From a virus (Duplodnaviria; Caudoviricetes): a DNA stretch of 64,000 bases. Both the position numbers and the translations under genes were made by a program. Of the stretch, positions 4,112 to 40,465 are shown one piece after another; the stretch's first letter is position 1; each line of letters begins with the position of its first letter. The stretch lies in IMG/VR virus record IMGVR_UViG_3300037067_011169, positions 1 through 64,000 of that record. The stretch is one strand, 5' to 3'. The notes beneath the pieces were generated by a model. The model was not told the origin of the DNA and searched no databases. It saw only the letters and a program-made list of their open reading frames with translations.

Positions 4112-4684
4112 TTAGGCATGATAGAAGGTGAATGTGCCCATCACCGTGTATGATTGATTTCCCGTTCCAGGATATAGATAGCACTTCCCATCATAGGTCC
4201 ATCCATTCCGCATCGCGTAGCGGAACTGCTGGCATTCAGACAGTCTCTCTAAGACTTGATCGGGTGTGCTCTTGTGGCCACGGTGTTCCATGATGAAGTT
4301 CGCCAACAGAATCGCATCAAAGGGCACCAACAAGTAGAGAATTCGCGCGATGAAGTCGGCTGATGTTTCTGCCATCTGCATCAGGTCCGCGTTTACTAGG
4401 CTCGGATTAAAGGCAGGGTAGCCTCGCATCACATCGTAGAAGTCACCATGGTGCCAAGCCAGGTCGGGCCAGGCTTGGACGTTGGCTTCGTAGATGCGTT
4501 TGTCGATCTCAACACCGTGGAACTGCTCCGGCTTGATGAGGCCAGCTTCAAGAATCTGATCGACCTCGCAGCCTTTGGTGGTGCAATTGCCTGCCATCGA
4601 CCAATACTGATTGGCGATTGGCCCGTGCGGCAAGATGGTGTCTAGTCGGGCTTGTTGCTTCTTCGGGTCAGACCAGGTTTTCAT
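4112..4684 (-). CDS. putative SAM-dependent methyltransferase-like protein
   Basis: FHGVEID, WHHGDF and LVNADL segments resemble class I MTase strands; ATGA overlap with upstream gene. Confidence 0.5.
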   Translation of the reverse strand: MKTWSDPKKQQARLDTILPHGPIANQYWSMAGNCTTKGCEVDQILEAGLIKPEQFHGVEIDKRIYEANVQAWPDLAWHHGDFYDVMRGYPAFNPSLVNADLMQMAETSADFIARILYLLVPFDAILLANFIMEHRGHKSTPDQVLERLSECQQFRYAMRNGWTYDGKCYLYPGTGNQSYTVMGTFTFYHA

Positions 4685-17108: not shown

Positions 17109-17798
17109 TTACTCCCATGTCTTTAGGTTCTTGACGCCTCTTCGTATGAGTCGCACAATGGCCAGGGCGTCTTCCAGGGCGGTATGAGCGACGACGTTAT
17201 CCATGCTTGCCCGTTCATAGCAGGTTTTGCTACCTGGCAGTGCAGTGTCTTCTGGCAACCAGAAGAAAGCGGATGGATCAATCACGCGATGTCGAAAATG
17301 GACCCTCTCTTTGAATTCAGGAACTCGATAGAGAAAGGGCATGTCAAAGGTGCCAAAGTTCTTCCCTGCCGCCTGGACATCAAATGGGTCAACGTCAACG
17401 TCTTTCAGCCAGTAGTGAAAGTCCTCACCAAGGTCCTCTGGATCGGTTGTCTGGCCTCCCTCGATCATTCTCAGCAGAGCACAATTCATCGCCAGGGCGT
17501 GGGGTTCGCCCTGGAGACGGTCATACTTGAGGATCGCGTGAAAGGTTTGTAGTTGGGATATGGGCCGTTTCCAATCATCGAAAACAGCCGCCATCTCTAG
17601 GACCTGGCAATAGTCTGGATCAAGTCCTGTTGTCTCCGTATCGATGCTCACGTAGGGGCAAGCCGGTGGTGTGGCCGGAACACTGGGTTCCGTTACGCCA
17701 TCCGACATGAATCCATGCCATTGGCATTGGGGACAGTCTCCGGTGATCTCCCCGGTTGGAACCAAGGCGGCTTCACAATGAGGACACAGCTTTTTCAT
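17109..17798 (-). CDS. DEDDh 3'-5' exonuclease with N-terminal Zn ribbon
   Basis: IDTETTGLD, NFGTFDMPFL, HTALEDA; CPHC...CPQC; ATGA overlap with Ro60. Confidence 0.88.
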   Translation of the reverse strand: MKKLCPHCEAALVPTGEITGDCPQCQWHGFMSDGVTEPSVPATPPACPYVSIDTETTGLDPDYCQVLEMAAVFDDWKRPISQLQTFHAILKYDRLQGEPHALAMNCALLRMIEGGQTTDPEDLGEDFHYWLKDVDVDPFDVQAAGKNFGTFDMPFLYRVPEFKERVHFRHRVIDPSAFFWLPEDTALPGSKTCYERASMDNVVAHTALEDALAIVRLIRRGVKNLKTWE

Positions 17799-19450: not shown

Positions 19451-19513
19451 TCGGGCAAAGGATGTTGATTGGTGTTCGTAATAATGATGGATAACCAATC
19501 AGCGTCGGCCCGA
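19451..19513 (-). ncRNA. minimal Y RNA (element E)
   Basis: TCGGGC-CGAC-GC-TGATTGG-TTATC-loop-CCAATCA-ACATCCTTT-GCCCGA; directly upstream of Ro60. Confidence 0.8.
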
Positions 19514-19515
19514 AG

Positions 19516-19613
19516 AGGGGATGGGAGGACTCGAACCTTCGATAACCGTCTTCATTCGACCCTCTCGGGTAAGTTAAGAAAACGGGTGCTCAAACCAACT
19601 GAGCTTCATCCCC
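19516..19613 (-). ncRNA. tRNA-scaffolded Y RNA (element A)
   Basis: acceptor GGGGATG/CATCCCC, D and T arms; anticodon arm replaced by CCGTTTTC..CTT-ACCC-GAGA-GGGT-CGAAT-GAAGACGG-TTATC. Confidence 0.8.
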
Positions 19614-19950: not shown

Positions 19951-20074
19951 TCACACCAGCAGGACTCGAACCTGCGACATCAAGTTCCTTAGATAACGTT
20001 GGTCTACGACCCGAATCGGGTAAGAGTCGATCAACGCATATTACTTGCGCTCTAGCCAACTGAGCTATGGTGTG
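19951..20074 (-). ncRNA. tRNA-scaffolded Y RNA (element B)
   Basis: CACACCA/TGGTGTG, D arm, CAAGT/ACTTG, GCAGG-TTCGAGT-CCTGC; 57-nt insert with CGTTG..CTT-ACCCG-ATT-CGGGT-CGTA..CAACG-TTATC. Confidence 0.82.
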
Positions 20075-20077
20075 AGG

Positions 20078-20141
20078 TGCGGGCAAGTGAGTTGCGATGG
20101 GGAAAATCTTAGCTGGATAACCCATAGCAGTTCGGCCCGCA
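20078..20141 (-). ncRNA. minimal Y RNA (element D)
   Basis: TGCGGGC-CGAAC-TGCTATGGG-TTATC-pyrimidine-rich loop-CCCATCGCA-ACTCACTT-GCCCGCA. Confidence 0.8.
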
Positions 20142-31309: not shown

Positions 31310-31589
31310 CGATGTATCTTTCGCAGTATTGGTTGATGGTTTCACTAAAATCCGCGACGTAGCTTCCCGCGCATCCGGCTGCCAGAACGATCCATGGGTT
31401 GGTTCCGAAAAGCGCCAAACCCAAAATGACACCACACCAGAAGCCACAACACTGATAGCACTCGAAGATGCCATAGTAGAGTAGTCTTGGAAGATGGGCC
31501 TCAGCGAAGGCATCTACCGTATCCATGATCCTTCCGTTGATGATGATGCGAGTCATTCCGATGACAGCAAGAAGGAAGAGCCAGATCAT
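31299..31589 (-). CDS. membrane protein (DUF1360-like)
   Basis: TM helices with CYQCCGFW. Confidence 0.65.
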   Translation of the reverse strand: MIWLFLLAVIGMTRIIINGRIMDTVDAFAEAHLPRLLYYGIFECYQCCGFWCGVILGLALFGTNPWIVLAAGCAGSYVADFSETINQYCERYIDEA

Positions 31590-32434
31590 ATTGGTAGCTC
31601 CGTTAAGTTCCTGGTTACGTGTCCGTCAGTCCAATCGAATACACCGACGCTCCCGTCGAGATCGATCCGAACGAAACTATTCACGGCTTCAGCCCAAGTA
31701 CCACAGTTGTAGAGCCGGCCCTCCACCATGCCGGGTCGATGGGTGTGGCCTGTAATGATGATGTTCTTCCCTCCATCCTGAACCAGGTCCTGATTCATCT
31801 TCCTGAATCGGTCTGGCTTTCCGCAGATGCGATGCCACAGGTCAACAAGCCGGTCCATGCGACCTATGGTCTTACTCTCAACAGTTCGATATTTCCCAGC
31901 CATTGGACTTCCGTTTCTGTCTTCTTTCAGACCAGCGTAGATAGCAGTGATTCGTCCGATGCCGGGGGCGTTGTTCGCACAGTACGGATCAGCCTCATGG
32001 CCATGGCTGATACGGAAGTTCTTCCCGGCCACGAAGAGGTTCGCGGCCATGCACATGCTGTCAAAGAAAGGATGGGGAAGCCATGTCTCGGCCTGGCCGA
32101 TGAAATAGTAAAGGTCCGCATCATGATTTCCTAGAACGTACACTGCACGCATCGCTTCAAAGCGATCGAACAGCCATTCGCTCTCAGTCAGCACCTTGCT
32201 GACGTTGTTTTGCCATAGCTCCAGTAAGTCGCCGGCAATCACCAGACGACCGTTCTCTCGGTCAACGTGATCGAGAAAACCAAGGAACTGCTGTTCCCGG
32301 TGGCCCACCGCGAAATTGTCCCGAGCGCCGCCGGCACCTTTGTGGATATCACTGACGACAAAAAAGGGGCCGTTTCTATCACGGCCCTGCGGATGATCGA
32401 TGAATCGATTCATCGCTGCGAGTTGGTTAAGCAT
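31586..32434 (-). CDS. calcineurin-like metallophosphoesterase
   Basis: SDIH, GDLLE, GNHD, HGH, GHTH. Confidence 0.9.
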   Translation of the reverse strand: MLNQLAAMNRFIDHPQGRDRNGPFFVVSDIHKGAGGARDNFAVGHREQQFLGFLDHVDRENGRLVIAGDLLELWQNNVSKVLTESEWLFDRFEAMRAVYVLGNHDADLYYFIGQAETWLPHPFFDSMCMAANLFVAGKNFRISHGHEADPYCANNAPGIGRITAIYAGLKEDRNGSPMAGKYRTVESKTIGRMDRLVDLWHRICGKPDRFRKMNQDLVQDGGKNIIITGHTHRPGMVEGRLYNCGTWAEAVNSFVRIDLDGSVGVFDWTDGHVTRNLTELPI

Positions 32435-32807
32435 GTTCCACTCCGAATGCTGGAAGTTGTTCTTGAACCTGGGCGAGAACCATCGACGCATCCAGATTGC
32501 GTTGGCCGTCAATCGCCATGTTCAATTCGTCGAGACCGATAATGCCCAACTGGCACGCCCGAATCATGGCGATCGTCTTGACTAAGTCTTCTCCACAGAC
32601 ATCCTTGTAGAGCATCCAGAGTCGTGATCCATAGATGCCATACTCATCAAGGAAACAGAAGACACCGATCGACCCCAATAGGTTGTCCGGGTCAATAGAC
32701 TCTGCTCTTTGAAGAGTCTCCACGAGCACGCGAATCGCGCCCGGGAGACCCTCGGAGAGTGTGTAGATGACATCTTGTACGGTGTCGGAAAGCTGAATGC
32801 GGGTCAT
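32427..32807 (-). CDS. hypothetical protein
   Basis: EGLPGA...GIYGSRLWMLYKDVCG. Confidence 0.7.
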   Translation of the reverse strand: MTRIQLSDTVQDVIYTLSEGLPGAIRVLVETLQRAESIDPDNLLGSIGVFCFLDEYGIYGSRLWMLYKDVCGEDLVKTIAMIRACQLGIIGLDELNMAIDGQRNLDASMVLAQVQEQLPAFGVEHA

Positions 32808-36295: not shown

Positions 36296-36495
36296 AGGAC
36301 TATCCAGATCGGGACCCAGTGTCCATCACTCCAGAGTTCTGTTCTCGTGTACCTCACTACATCAATTGGCGTGCAATCAACCGGCTCATTCGGGCAATAA
36401 CTAATTGGCCGTCTTAGACCTCGAAGACAATCAAACCAAGGACTGTCCGCCACTATGTCTTTGCCGTGGTTTGGCCCGCCGATGCACAACATCAC
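36292..36495 (-). CDS. hypothetical protein
   Basis: LCIGGPNHGK; overlap-coupled. Confidence 0.55.
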   Translation of the reverse strand: MMLCIGGPNHGKDIVADSPWFDCLRGLRRPISYCPNEPVDCTPIDVVRYTRTELWSDGHWVPIWIVL

Positions 36496-39029
36496 ATCAT
36501 CTCCGGGGCCCGGACCTTGACCTTATTGGGGCCATTCTTCTTCTCTGCCCAATTGGCCATTCGTTCAAACCAAGTCATCCCGATCAACGGAACATACTTT
36601 CGATACGACTCCACGATGGTTCTCACGACTTGCCTGACCTGATCCACCATGGTTGGATGTGTCGAGCACATCAGTTCATCATGGACGTTCATTGGGCCAA
36701 CCAGGAATTCATGGACTCCCGCCGGCTGCAAGTTCCATATCCCTCGTTGAAGGGCCTTCGTAATCTGACTGCCGGGAGACTGAATTTCGTGATTGGCTGC
36801 GGCTCTCATGTTAGCCGCTTGAATTTGGAATGCCGCCGCATACAAGGCACTGGTTACAGCACCACCAGCCGTTTGAATCCGATCTCGACGGGTAACCTTG
36901 ATCTTCGCGTCCCGCCAGTTCTTCGGCGGCTTCCGCGCCAGGTCAAATAGGGCTCGACAAATCTTGTTCTCTAGGGTGAAATACCGGCGGAACCCCAGGA
37001 AGCTCTCAACGTATTCAGCCGGTTCATGCCAGACGACTTTCGACCCAATGCCAGCAGGCTGAACCATCGAACAGAATTTCCGGTGAATTCGCTCTCGGGC
37101 TTTGCCAATCCCTTTGTATTTTTCAGCCCACTGGGTATCGGCCTTCTTCGCTCGTTCCTCACTGATACTCAAATTGCGCATCAGCGTTCGCCAATTGCCG
37201 CCGTAAATCTCCGCGAAGACTCCGCTCTTGCCCTTGTTGTACTTGGTCTTGTCCGCGATGACTTCCTCATAGGCACAGTCAAAGAGGATCATTGCAAACA
37301 GGGCATGGACTTTCTTCGTTGTGATTCCCGTGCCTTCGCAGTCGTCACAGTCTGGTTTCTTGCCGCCACACTTGCACGGAGCCTTGGTGATTAGGGTTCG
37401 CCGCAATTCTGGGTCGTTGTAGACAGCGTCTGCAATTGTTACCTCAAAACTGTCGAAGTCGCCGCCGCATAGCAAATAGCCGGACCAAGCAAGAGGGAAC
37501 AGTGCGCGGACCACGTCCGAGTTTCTAATCCCTTGTGCGTTCAATCCGTCGCCACCTGACATTCGATTGGACAGCGTGCCAACGACGTTGAAGGAGGCAT
37601 GGAACTTTCCAGCAAACAACAACTTGTCGAATAACTCTCGCTCCTTCGCAGCGTGCTTGATCGCCAGCAATTCTCTTGCACGGATGGCTGCTGGATGTTC
37701 CTGACCCGCAACCAGACGCCCTTTTCCTCCGCACCGCTGGCATACTCCCTTGGGCAATTGTCCAGTGCCGCCGCATTTCATGCAGTGCTCGGGGTCCTTG
37801 ATCCGTTCCCAGGTCTCGATCGAAATCAGATCGCCGTCTTCATCTTCCTCAAGTTCCTCAAGCAACTGCTGAGATGTCTTGATCTTGAAGTCACGAACAA
37901 CTTCAAGGTTTTGCTTCTTCGTTGATTCCTGGATATTAGTCAGGCTCTCCACATCATCCATGACTTCCAGCATGTACTTACGCACTTCCGCCGGCTTGTT
38001 GATGTTGACTGGACTCGAATCGACTATCGCCTGAGCCTTGGCTCGGAGTTCCTTCATACCCTCAATGTCGATCGTGAAGCCTCTCCATCGGATGACAGCC
38101 ACCATGCAAGCCAAGATGGAGTCATCATCATTGGGCTCTGGGCAGCCAAAATGCTTATCCAGCGCCCTTGTATAAACAATGTCGTCAGTCGCGTAATCTC
38201 TTGCATCCGGCCTTGTGGACCAGTGGTCGATGAAGTGATGGATAACGGCTGGCCAGGCATAGCCAACCAACTTGTCCTTGCCGTCGGCCGCCTTCCATAC
38301 CTGCCAATGGCGGTCTGGGTTGCTCACTGCTAGAGCGGTTGGGGCGTATCCGTACTCAAATGGCCTCCATCTGGGATCAGGTTCCACGTCCTTATAGTGG
38401 TACTTGGGCTTCAGTCCCAAAGCATGTTCAGCAAGAAACTTCAAGCCGCCGGCCGGATTGAACCGAAGCACGACATCCTTGAAGTCCTCATCTACCAATC
38501 CATCTCTCGTATGCCTGTCGAATACGTGCCACTTCGGTGCGTCCTTATCCGCACTCCTAGCAAAATAGATCGAATCCAGTTCGATCCGTGATTCCAACTC
38601 CTGAGCCAACGCATACGCCAGGACCGTTGGGACCTTGCGGATGCGAATGTCTTCTCGCGCCATGAGACTCTGGTAGGGTCCCTTTCGAGAATGCAGAAGC
38701 AAATCCAAGGCTCCCGCCGGCTTCACGCACGGGCCCTCTTGTCCCTTGGGCTCTAGTAGGGCAATCTCCTCTATGTGTTCACAGGGAATCCAGCCGGGAT
38801 CACACAGTCTGAATGTGGTATAGCACTTTGCCAGATGGAACCAATCAAACGCCAGATTGAAGCCAACGACGGTGCCCTCGCACAGCCACTCAATTAGCGC
38901 CAATGTCTCTCTGACAGGACGCTTCCAGACTTCATGAAGAACAATGGGACCATCTTCGACTGCATACTGAATCAATACGACTTGCGAATGAAGACCACAC
39001 GTCTCCGTATCAATGTAGACTTTCTTCAT
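36492..39029 (-). CDS. polA: family A DNA polymerase with 3'-5' exonuclease
   Basis: IDTETCGL, GFNLAFD, YATDD; GTLSNRMSG; motif A GDFDSFE; motif B KSGVFAEIYG; motif C VHDEL. Confidence 0.95.
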   Translation of the reverse strand: MKKVYIDTETCGLHSQVVLIQYAVEDGPIVLHEVWKRPVRETLALIEWLCEGTVVGFNLAFDWFHLAKCYTTFRLCDPGWIPCEHIEEIALLEPKGQEGPCVKPAGALDLLLHSRKGPYQSLMAREDIRIRKVPTVLAYALAQELESRIELDSIYFARSADKDAPKWHVFDRHTRDGLVDEDFKDVVLRFNPAGGLKFLAEHALGLKPKYHYKDVEPDPRWRPFEYGYAPTALAVSNPDRHWQVWKAADGKDKLVGYAWPAVIHHFIDHWSTRPDARDYATDDIVYTRALDKHFGCPEPNDDDSILACMVAVIRWRGFTIDIEGMKELRAKAQAIVDSSPVNINKPAEVRKYMLEVMDDVESLTNIQESTKKQNLEVVRDFKIKTSQQLLEELEEDEDGDLISIETWERIKDPEHCMKCGGTGQLPKGVCQRCGGKGRLVAGQEHPAAIRARELLAIKHAAKERELFDKLLFAGKFHASFNVVGTLSNRMSGGDGLNAQGIRNSDVVRALFPLAWSGYLLCGGDFDSFEVTIADAVYNDPELRRTLITKAPCKCGGKKPDCDDCEGTGITTKKVHALFAMILFDCAYEEVIADKTKYNKGKSGVFAEIYGGNWRTLMRNLSISEERAKKADTQWAEKYKGIGKARERIHRKFCSMVQPAGIGSKVVWHEPAEYVESFLGFRRYFTLENKICRALFDLARKPPKNWRDAKIKVTRRDRIQTAGGAVTSALYAAAFQIQAANMRAAANHEIQSPGSQITKALQRGIWNLQPAGVHEFLVGPMNVHDELMCSTHPTMVDQVRQVVRTIVESYRKYVPLIGMTWFERMANWAEKKNGPNKVKVRAPEMM

Positions 39030-39424
39030 TTCACCGAAGGCTTAGGTGTAAAAATCTTGTAGCCGTCCTCGTCGTACCGTAGATCACCATAGTACCGCTC
39101 ATCCAAGGCTGTCATCTTCTCTTCCTCTTCGAGGCTGTACCGTTCGAGTCGCTCCTGGGCATCCCAGGCTCTCAAGGCATCACGCATCGTATCGAACAAC
39201 CCAAGATGGGTCCCGAGGAAGTAGCACTCGAACTGATCTGCCACTTGAGTGACGCCCTGCCCAAAGGGAATCAATCGATGACATCTGGGCGCAGGAACCC
39301 TAGTCCCGGCTCGCAAGGCTTCCCGGATATCATCAATCTCCTCTTGCTCTAACCTGTATACGACCCGCCCACCGGGCAATGTGATCGGATACATGAATTC
39401 GTGTTCATAGGTGCCTAACATCAA
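39026..39424 (-). CDS. hypothetical protein
   Basis: overlap-coupled to polA. Confidence 0.6.
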   Translation of the reverse strand: MMLGTYEHEFMYPITLPGGRVVYRLEQEEIDDIREALRAGTRVPAPRCHRLIPFGQGVTQVADQFECYFLGTHLGLFDTMRDALRAWDAQERLERYSLEEEEKMTALDERYYGDLRYDEDGYKIFTPKPSVK

Positions 39425-39447: not shown

Positions 39448-39568
39448 GACGACCGACAGGACTCGAACCTGCATCACCCGCTTAAATGGCGATAACGCTG
39501 TCCAGTCGGCCCAGAGGGGCAAGAAGCGGACAGCAGTATTAGGTGCTCTGCCGTTAAGCTACGGTCGT
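39448..39568 (-). ncRNA. tRNA-scaffolded Y RNA (element C)
   Basis: ACGACCG/CGGTCGT, D and T arms; insert GCTGTCC-GCTTCTT-GCCC-CTCT-GGGC-CGACT-GGACAGC-GTTATC. Confidence 0.8.
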
Positions 39569-39630
39569 CGTGTGAACAAGAGATGGGTGATTCAAGGTCA
39601 TCAAAGGTCATCCAGGGACCATCCACTCTT

Positions 39631-39667: not shown

Positions 39668-40465
39668 CTACAATTTACCCATCTTTGCCAAAGAAATATC
39701 CTTGTCCAATTCCTCATCAGTGATATAACCCGCAAACCACGCCCCGAACCGTGTAGTCAGACCACCCAGGCCCTCTCCCAACAACTGGCTGATTCGTTGG
39801 TTCACTTCCTTCTTGGTTCGTCGGAAGCGAAATTTCCTTCGGAACTTCGGGGTGACAAATCGTTTCTTCCTGGTCTTCCGTGCGCCAATGAGTTCCTTCG
39901 CCGCCACGACCTGTTCTTCTGGAGACAGGGTCACAAGAATCTCGACATCCAACATCGTCAACATTCTCGCTGCTACCTGCTTCTGAATCTGCTCGGGGAG
40001 CTTGAGTAACCTAAGCCGTTGATGGACCCAGCGGGTATTCCGTTTCACCTCTTTACTGATAGTCTTCAGGCTTGCGCCCTCGGGGAAGAGTTTCTGAAGT
40101 GACTTAGCCTCCTCCAAAGGATTCAAGTCCTTCCGCTCAAGGTTCTCAGTCACGTTGAGAATCTCCGCGCCTCGATCTGTGAGACCTATTCGGATGTTCG
40201 CCCGAATTGTCTTCCACTTCAGGAAATGCTTCACGGCGTCCAATCGACGAAAGCCGGCGACCAATCGATATTTGGTGGGGAAGTCGATCTGACTATCCTC
40301 CCTGCGCTGGAGAACCACTGGGAACTCCAACCCTTCCGCCTCGATGCTCTCCGCAAGATTCCGAATCGACTCTGGTAGAAAGGTATCACGACAATTGAAT
40401 GATGGATCGACCCAGATGTCCTTTATCGGGACCTCGTATACGTCATATTCTGTCAAGCGTTCCAT
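39668..40465 (-). CDS. ParB/Spo0J-like protein
   Basis: FNCR, GLEFPV, YRLVAGFRR, ENLERKDLNPLEEA, HTH. Confidence 0.88.
   Translation of the reverse strand: MERLTEYDVYEVPIKDIWVDPSFNCRDTFLPESIRNLAESIEAEGLEFPVVLQRREDSQIDFPTKYRLVAGFRRLDAVKHFLKWKTIRANIRIGLTDRGAEILNVTENLERKDLNPLEEAKSLQKLFPEGASLKTISKEVKRNTRWVHQRLRLLKLPEQIQKQVAARMLTMLDVEILVTLSPEEQVVAAKELIGARKTRKKRFVTPKFRRKFRFRRTKKEVNQRISQLLGEGLGGLTTRFGAWFAGYITDEELDKDISLAKMGKL

Follow-up and report, generated by a model that had tools for sequence, protein, structure and literature searches.

A solitary tRNA-shaped RNA with a permuted Y-RNA module, apart from the Ro60 cassette of a phage

Introduction

Y RNAs are understood to tether Ro60 to an effector. 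In the bacterial RNA YrlA the half that resembles a tRNA has been described, whereas, to our knowledge, the partner of that half has not. A phage genome of the Caudoviricetes (Duplodnaviria), IMG/VR record IMGVR_UViG_3300037067_011169 (87.3 kb), raises the question of what a tRNA-shaped RNA with a built-in Y-RNA module does when it stands alone, ahead of a DNA polymerase gene and far from the gene for Ro60. We analysed positions 1 to 64,000 of that record (the window). The element, here called C, is one of five Y modules in the record, all on the minus strand; the others are linear Y RNA Y1, the tRNA-Y hybrids A and B and linear Y RNA Y2, whereas a preliminary description of the locus had counted three copies. 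It had also placed C 19 kb from Ro60. That figure fits hybrid A (19.4 kb), and the Ro60 start codon is 20.0 kb away, downstream on the same strand.

Anatomy of element C

The Rfam tRNA model (RF00005) aligns C end to end with 40.6 bits (cut-off 29), covering full-length D and T arms and leaving a 63-nt insert in the anticodon region, and the Y module scores 49.2 bits with our module model (R1). The earlier view of C as a chimera of tRNA and Y RNA is supported. All 34 modelled pairs are intact, with no mismatch. The Y module itself has an upper stem, GCUGUCC/GGACAGC (7/7 pairs), an internal loop, GCUUC/CU, and a Ro60-type helix, UU-GCCC/GGGC-(C)-GA, with a bulged C at 39508 and a CUCU loop (39513-39516). 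The module pattern occurs three times in the window (A, B and C) against 0.00 expected from 100 shuffles; with this excess and an R1 E-value of 4e-9, a chance origin of the module was rejected.

The anticodon arm is interrupted by the module, not replaced. It reads GAGC-A-CC, then UAAUACU-module-GUUAU, then CGC-CAUUUAA-GCG-GG, so that a 5-bp anticodon stem is made of CC/GG and CGC/GCG, and its 5' strand is broken between positions 28 and 29 by 50 nt of linker and module. The hairpin of 3 bp and 7 nt that survives 3' of GUUAUC stacks on CC/GG in this model. When RNA positions 28-77 are deleted in silico, the remaining 71 nt form a cloverleaf, read by ARAGORN as tRNA-Lys(UUU), and the same deletion on relatives gives Asn(GUU), Ile(GAU, UAU), Cys(GCA), Lys(UUU), Pro and Tyr cloverleaves. 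In A-type units the insert site is between positions 31 and 32, and in B-type units the anticodon hairpin is missing altogether. With default settings, ARAGORN did not call C as a tRNA. Its intron-tRNA calls, taken at face value, were rejected on account of inconsistent anticodons and intron positions, C being called tRNA-Stop(UUA) i(33,52).

At the other end of the molecule, C encodes no CCA (the 3' flank is AUC), and a G at 39569 (position -1) can pair with the discriminator C at 39448. As C has no neighbouring unit, the unpermuted fold with free acceptor ends is the only topology that can be predicted for it. As modelled, each member of the class to which C belongs has a full tRNA fold in which the acceptor ends are free and the D arm, the T arm and an anticodon hairpin are kept. 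A further hairpin, which copies the predicted Ro60-binding part of a Y RNA and is closed by a small loop, extends from the anticodon stem on its 5' strand.

Covariation in the hybrid family

The module pattern was found in 14 viral contigs, in about 10 of them within tRNA-like bodies, and 71 viral loci were fetched with the Ro60 protein. Besides R1, a full-length hybrid model (R2) was built with C among its four seeds, and hits of at least 95 nt were taken as hybrid-length. The R1 score of C is mid-range for the family. Since MAFFT misaligned the module in eight distant C-type members, an alignment guided by the covariance model (CM) was used in its place.

The terminal helix is GCCC/GGGC in C and ACCC/GGGU in A and B, which had been described as a compensatory change. 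In 17 modules the pair beside the bulge is G-C in nine, A-U in seven and a mismatch in one; this split was not forced, as the regular expression used for selection also tolerated G-U and A-C. Family-wide, the pair beside the bulged C is GC in 15 members, AU in 13, CG in one and unpaired in none, so that the swap proves to be a general covariation. The claim of a perfectly paired upper stem also stands, and this stem and every other helix are maintained by compensatory changes. In a MAFFT-only alignment of four close C orthologues, 97.1% of cells are paired and 11 of the 34 pairs are changed on both sides, while controls in which the 3' partner was slid by 1-3 columns gave 34-46%. Across 32 family members, in the CM-fitted alignment, 95.4% of cells are paired against 68.8% when shuffled, and double changes affect 32 of the 34 pairs, in all seven helices, including both halves of the split anticodon stem.

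Outside the helices, CUU, CGA and GUUAUC had been described as kept in all three hybrids; C has each of them, but copy A reads CGU for CGA. The family consensus of the linker is (U/A)AAAYY. Most anticodon-like loops have 7 nt, U33 and a purine at position 37, some members having loops of 5, 6 or 8 nt, and the insert lies at 28/29, 29/30 or 31/32. A distant member (L038:5278-5398) has the same loop as C, CAUUUAA with A33. In most hybrids position -1 pairs with discriminator 73 (alignments A5 and A7), mainly as G-1:C73, with U:A as the alternative. G-1:C73 is found in 21 of 57 viral and 76 of 130 bacterial hybrids, versus 4 of 79 and 1 of 17 canonical tRNAs of the same loci; this tRNA-His-like eighth acceptor pair is thus typical of hybrids and rare in canonical tRNAs.

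Two kinds of variant were also seen. An 88-nt A-type body (L034:3260-3347, in IMGVR_UViG_3300032070_000001), upstream of a Ro60 65% identical to that of the window, retains GUUAUC and an AAGGAA loop without the whole Y hairpin, and looks like a module-less derivative or precursor. Hybrids of about 205 nt (L077:2747-2951, L079:2563-2769 and L090:2747-2951) look as if a complete nested linear Y RNA (GUGAGCCG...GGAUUAUCC...UUGCUCAC) had taken the place of the module's terminal loop.

The Ro60-type helix and the linear Y RNAs

Linear Y1 and Y2 are laid out as 5'-GGGCCGA-stem-GGUUAUC...stem-(C/U)UUGCCC-3'. Hybrids A, B and C hold the same parts in circularly permuted order, stem-CUU-RCCC-loop-GGGY-C-GA-stem-GUUAUC, by which the Ro60-type helix becomes a closed hairpin. 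The helix of C recurs in linear Y RNAs beside Ro60. In vertebrates, the Ro60 site is a helix with a single bulged C, and a UUAUC motif follows the upper stem in vertebrate Y RNAs and in stem-bulge RNAs (sbRNAs) (PMC4726728). GGGC-C-GA/UU-GCCC of C matches this vertebrate-type site, which makes it a candidate docking helix, and the relative position of UUAUC in C agrees with that in sbRNAs and in vertebrate Y RNAs. UUAUC is invariant in the seed sequences and is also present in linear Y RNAs that were not chosen for it. Two motifs, GGUCCGA and GNCGAAN0-1G, have been reported for the Ro60 site (PMC4201824). For the latter, C reads GCCGACUG, with one mismatch; B (GUCGAAUG) and the first hybrid of L011 (GCCGAAG) match exactly. 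Taken together, the comparison shows that a predicted helix of metazoan Ro60 type and the UUAUC motif are conserved in phage and bacterial Y RNAs.

Linear Y2 matches the nematode sbRNA model RF01656 only weakly (E 0.11). The same model exceeds its gathering cut-off of 38 on two bacterial linear Y RNAs beside Ro60 (42.8 and 40.7 bits; L153 in Table 1), and the Rfam sbRNA family therefore cross-detects bacterial Y RNAs.

Linkage of hybrids to Ro60

Bacterial loci were chosen by the module pattern alone in a scan of genome contigs, in which Ro60 played no part, and 80 loci were listed. R2 hybrids were found in 49 of these, often in arrays of three to five, and 42 of the 49 contain a Ro60 homologue within the 8-kb locus. 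Conversely, every Ro60 locus among the 80 carries hybrids. In phages, 31 of 67 Ro60 loci have hybrid-length hits (R1, R2), all of them on the Ro60 strand, 38 upstream and six downstream. The bacterial carriers include Nostoc and other cyanobacteria, Deinococcus lacus, D. xinjiangensis, Chloroflexota, Armatimonadota, Myxococcota, Planctomycetota and Gemmatimonadota. Within the Nostoc punctiforme array, the acceptor halves co-vary unit by unit (UGGUGGG/UCCACUA, UGGCGGG/UCCGCUA and UGGCAGA/UCUGCCA), which favours the unpermuted reading of each unit. Arrays of three to five tandem hybrids stand directly upstream of Ro60 in N. punctiforme NIES-2108 (L110:6612-7255) and in about 20 further Nostoc loci, with AU-rich spacers that carry repeated AAAAUCCAAAAU motifs; these carriers are culturable cyanobacteria.

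Synteny and a split cassette

In three relatives (L023, L025 and L026, polA 74-76% identical) the gene order is ParB, then Y RNAs with hybrids h1, h2 and, in some, h3, then Ro60, orf132 and polA. In the window it is ParB, C, orf132, polA, with C 99 nt past the ParB stop and 23 nt ahead of the orf132 start. A fourth relative, L024, has ParB, orf132 and polA with nothing between them. Orthologues of C head the arrays in L023/L011, L025/L019 and L026, and those of L023, L025 and L026 adjoin Ro60. C matches h1 in acceptor pattern, linker, layout of GUUAUC and hairpin, and body identity, which is highest with h1 (0.76 and 0.75; the value for A is 0.68). The counterparts of A and B are h2 and h3, respectively. 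By this comparison the cassette is split in the present genome, with h1 (that is, C) at the relatives' cassette site and Y1-A-B-Y2-Ro60 20 kb downstream, next to a DEDDh exonuclease gene (17109-17798) with which the end of the Ro60 gene overlaps. Whichever direction the rearrangement took, C appears at the usual cassette site and matches the first unit of the array.

The place of C ahead of polA had been held to imply separate timing. It reflects instead the split cassette, as the relatives' entire array with Ro60 is at the ParB/orf132-polA junction, and neither a promoter nor a terminator was found flanking C in a scan limited to sigma-70-type sites, in which counts were not above shuffles. 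Separate timing is possible, although not implied by position: a terminator-like hairpin at 32367-32387 on the minus strand is located between the blocks of polA and Ro60. This hairpin is the region's best candidate of the intrinsic type (GGGCCGU...ACGGCCC, then a T run) and is apparently within a called open reading frame, 31586-32512.

A lone hybrid is also found elsewhere. In G005, a complete relative (100%, 146 kb), an A-type hybrid at C1:20729-20850 on the minus strand (L222) stands 41 kb from the Ro60 array. A weaker, 112-nt tRNA-like match was observed in the same genome at 93852-93963.

Origin of the tRNA body

The preliminary description took the different body of C as a sign of repeated grafting of the module and suggested identifying a parent tRNA for each scaffold. 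By global identity, the body of C has no clear parent, the best canonical match being 0.72 (Arg UCU) and the phage's own tRNA-Lys 0.69. The D-arm type UAGCUUAA..GG is found in 5 of 323 canonical tRNAs in the studied loci, three of them tRNA-Lys. The phage's own tRNA-Lys(UUU), a canonical gene at 868-941 (ARAGORN), has this type and differs from the D arm of C by one substitution and one extra base, and the loop of C, CAUUUAA, is one base off the Lys loop CUUUUAA. Only the D-arm type and the loop of C point to Lys.

Being closest to the first array unit of the relatives, the body of C is best described as an inherited lineage and not as a new graft in this phage; the grafting claim is only partly supported. 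Hybrid bodies are, however, mosaic. In L019/L025, h1 is 81% identical to the same phage's tRNA-Asn(GUU), with a D arm matching at 20 of 20 positions and the loop CUGUUAA, which suggests that hybrids and resident tRNA genes undergo gene conversion. Such exchange seems to recur: orthologous units resemble different resident tRNAs, which fits recurrent exchange better than one-off grafting in this phage.

Genomic context

The features discussed are collected in Table 1. In PDB searches, the Ro60 of the window matches human and Xenopus Ro60 best (9nen 6e-124, 1yvp 2e-121); it is nearer to these than to Rsr of Deinococcus radiodurans (2nvo 3e-113), and Ro60 of Thermus phage phiLo is far from it (9l5y 2e-11). 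Nearness to metazoan Ro60 fits the metazoan-like helix and UUAUC of the RNAs of this phage. Y2 begins about 4 nt past the 3' end of B, and tRNA-type 3' processing of B would thus leave Y2 with a very short 5' leader. A tRNA-Asn stands in front of ParB (ARAGORN). A blastn search of the C region against phage GenBank returned tRNA-Asn matches only and no close deposited relative.

Table 1. Positions of element C, its parts and associated features (positions are those of the window unless a locus is named)
Feature	Position	Strand	Description	Evidence
Element C	39448-39568	minus	121-nt tRNA-shaped RNA with Y-RNA module	Rfam RF00005 40.6 bits; R2 model 124.6 bits
Acceptor 5' strand ACGACCG	39562-39568	minus	pairs with CGGUCGU 39449-39455, 7/7	helix 1 covaries in family
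D arm GCUU-AACGGCA-GAGC	39545-39559	minus	rare UAGCUUAA..GG type	
Lower two anticodon-stem pairs CC and 5' linker UAAUACU	39535-39543	minus	CC pairs with GG 39477-39478	helix 3 covaries
Permuted Y module	39497-39534	minus		R1 model 49.2 bits, E 4e-9; covariation
GUUAUC motif	39491-39496	minus	last C opens upper part of anticodon stem	
Anticodon-like hairpin CGC-CAUUUAA-GCG	39479-39491	minus	7-nt loop, A33, UUU triplet	helix 6 covaries
T arm GCAGG-UUCGAGU-CCUGU	39456-39472	minus		Rfam alignment; family covariation
ParB-like gene	39668-40465	minus	upstream flank of C and of relatives' cassette site	Pfam ParB_N, HTH_ParB; PHROGs; synteny
orf132	39026-39424	minus	downstream flank of C	synteny with L023-L026
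Family-A DNA polymerase (polA)	36492-39029	minus	downstream of orf132	Pfam DNA_pol_A; synteny with L023-L026
Linear Y1	20081-20138	minus	upstream of Ro60	
Hybrid A	19951-20074	minus	upstream of Ro60	
Hybrid B	19516-19613	minus	upstream of Ro60	
Linear Y2	19453-19511	minus	directly upstream of Ro60	
Ro60 gene, 534 aa	17795-19399	minus	presumed protein partner	Pfam vWA_Ro60 6.5e-68, TROVE 2.7e-35
h1 and tRNA-Asn	L019:698-820 and L025:90-163		common unusual GUUC/GAAC D stem	
Linear Y RNAs passing RF01656	L153:3329-3398 and 4162-4233		Chthonomonadaceae metagenome-assembled genome	

Function of C and rival explanations

We consider it probable that C is a functional, solitary Ro60-associated RNA, excised like a tRNA, docked by Ro60 and using its tRNA body as an effector handle. 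C would be transcribed within the message of ParB, orf132 and polA, from which host RNase P and RNase Z would excise it like a tRNA. The phage Ro60 would then dock on the GGGC-C-GA/UU-GCCC helix, and the tRNA-shaped body could act as a handle by which a nuclease or a factor that recognises tRNA is brought to Ro60, the product of the DEDDh exonuclease gene being the first candidate. An effector role of this kind has been proposed for the part of YrlA that resembles a tRNA. The scheme is drawn by analogy with tethering by Y RNAs (PMC4201824; PMC12135203). Several observations weigh against such a role. C stands 20 kb from Ro60. The minimum free energy fold of the single sequence misses the split anticodon stem, its z-score being only -2.05, and the alignment of 32 members, being CM-fitted, leans toward the modelled structure. 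A33 makes C an imperfect tRNA mimic, and its GNCGAA-like motif, GCCGAC, has one mismatch. Finally, the close relative L024/G003 (CheckV 77% complete) has neither hybrids nor Ro60 anywhere in its 83-kb record, so that the system is dispensable.

Some of these points would also be expected of a non-functional relic, namely the first array unit, which would have stayed in place as the Ro60 cassette was transferred to a site 20 kb away, or acquired anew there, and would now be drifting. C is found at the relatives' cassette site without Ro60 or sister units, it departs from U33 and by one base from GNCGAA, and L024 has lost everything at that site. A drifting element, however, would hardly keep 34 of 34 pairs through many differences from its nearest orthologue at paired positions, 11 pairs having changed on both sides among the four orthologues, nor a module score in the middle of the family range. 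The loop with A33 is shared with the distant L038 member, and a remote lone hybrid exists also in the complete genome G005. We therefore regard a relic as unlikely. Still less likely is a tRNA gene bearing an insertion or intron, tRNA-Lys(UUU)-like, in which the insert is tolerated or removed, the product serves in translation and the link to Ro60 is secondary. The cloverleaves obtained by deletion, in C and in relatives with six different specificities (Asn, Ile, Cys, Lys, Pro and Tyr), would suit such a gene, as would the prevalence of 7-nt loops with U33 and a purine at 37 and a D-arm type enriched in tRNA-Lys. Yet C has A33 where U33 is nearly universal, a canonical tRNA-Lys(UUU) is already present in the phage, and orthologous units in close relatives differ in triplet (GUU, GAU, UUU). 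Some members have loops of 5, 6 or 8 nt, B-type units lack the hairpin, and the position of the insert varies. By inspection, the insert flanks form no bulge-helix-bulge, and an intron of this type in C was rejected, as its junctions flank one end of a hairpin with single strands of 7 and 5 nt and no such motif can be drawn. A bacterial equivalent of the splicing endonuclease has not been reported (10.1101/312249), and the UUAUC linker motif is equally conserved in linear Y RNAs, where splicing is not at issue.

The close fit of C into its operon, 99 nt after ParB and 23 nt before orf132 with no promoter or terminator of its own, could be read differently again, as a tRNA-like processing site acting in cis: cleavage by RNase P and RNase Z would part ParB from the orf132-polA message and set their relative stability, and the tRNA-Asn is similarly placed before ParB. 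This we hold to be very improbable, as it leaves the conserved Y module, UUAUC and the linkage to Ro60 unexplained, and L024 has the same operon junction without any tRNA-like element. Another reading concerns the whole class and is drawn from the intact anticodon arm and the class-specific eighth acceptor pair G-1:C73. Hybrids may be genuine substrates of the tRNA pathway, processed by RNase P and RNase Z, CCA-tailed and perhaps charged, and possibly the ancestral, unpermuted form behind YrlA. This seems rather unlikely to us. If true, hybrids would couple Ro60 and the product of the overlapping DEDDh exonuclease gene to the tRNA-handling machinery, and YrlA would have arisen from a read-out that spans two adjacent units in a tandem array.

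Comparison with known systems

C shares with canonical tRNA-Lys(UUU) (RF00005) a full cloverleaf, the T loop UUCGAGU, a 7-bp acceptor, a 7-nt loop and a Lys-type D arm. It differs from a canonical tRNA in an anticodon stem split 2+3 by the 50-nt insert, in A33 for U33 and in the G-1:C73 pair. Yrn1 of D. radiodurans and Yrl1/Yrl2 of Thermus phage phiLo are Y RNAs that bind Ro60 and tether it to the exoribonuclease PNPase, and Yrn1 has some tRNA-like features (PMC4201824; PMC12135203). Unlike C, these RNAs have a linear stem-bulge-stem form in which the Ro60-binding stem contains both ends, and none of them makes a complete tRNA whose acceptor ends are free.

Vertebrate Y RNAs and nematode sbRNAs (RF00019, RF01656) have in common with C the helix with a single bulged C, of type GGUCCGA/UUGACC against GGGCCGA/UUGCCC in C, and an upper stem followed by UUAUC. 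In C, by contrast, a tetraloop closes the helix, a whole tRNA that bears the RNA ends makes up the 'loop domain', and the carrier is a phage of bacteria. Neither RF00019 nor RF01656 matched C at E<=5.

YrlA RNAs 'resemble circularly permuted tRNAs', with a closed acceptor stem-loop (Wang et al. 2018, 10.1101/312249). YrlA (RF02553; PMC4201824; 10.1101/312249) has, like C, a Ro60-binding stem (predicted in C) and a tRNA-like D arm, T arm and acceptor; like the class of C, it has a GNCGAA-like motif and is usually encoded beside Ro60 on the same strand. In YrlA, however, it is the Ro60-binding stem that contains the 5' and 3' ends, while a loop closes the acceptor, whereas C has free acceptor ends, a Ro60-type hairpin closed by CUCU and an anticodon hairpin. 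C also keeps both strands of the Ro60 helix, of which only the 5' strand is recognisable in YrlA of Salmonella and M. smegmatis. RF02553 remained below its cut-off of 69 bits on the genome of this phage (at best 30.5 bits on a tRNA pair, with a 9.1-bit partial match in the C region), as well as on nine bacterial loci and 17 further phage Ro60 loci. With these scores and the opposite topology, canonical YrlA membership of C was rejected. No published description of the unpermuted tRNA-Y form was found; the supplements of Chen et al. 2014 were outside this search, and an earlier mention there is possible, as the cyanobacterial 'YrlA with longer acceptor stem' of that study may be arrays of this class.

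To what was seen in A and B, C adds a solitary unit that excludes the permuted reading, the anatomy of a split anticodon stem and a synteny that reveals a broken cassette. As a lone unit it would offer the cleanest test of whether the hybrids are the ancestral form behind YrlA, and members of the class in Nostoc punctiforme and Deinococcus would bring such a test within reach. Set beside YrlA, the hybrids appear as a second, reversed connectivity, in which the acceptor ends are free and the anticodon hairpin is preserved. It is found in roughly half of the phage Ro60 loci sampled and, in arrays beside Ro60, in Nostoc, Deinococcus, Chloroflexota, Armatimonadota, Myxococcota and Planctomycetota. 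Such a connectivity would widen the options for the effector: whatever depends on a genuine tRNA 3' end could serve, for instance RNase P and RNase Z, the CCA-adding enzyme, synthetases or RNase T-like exonucleases. The class may also offer a concrete route for the origin of YrlA.
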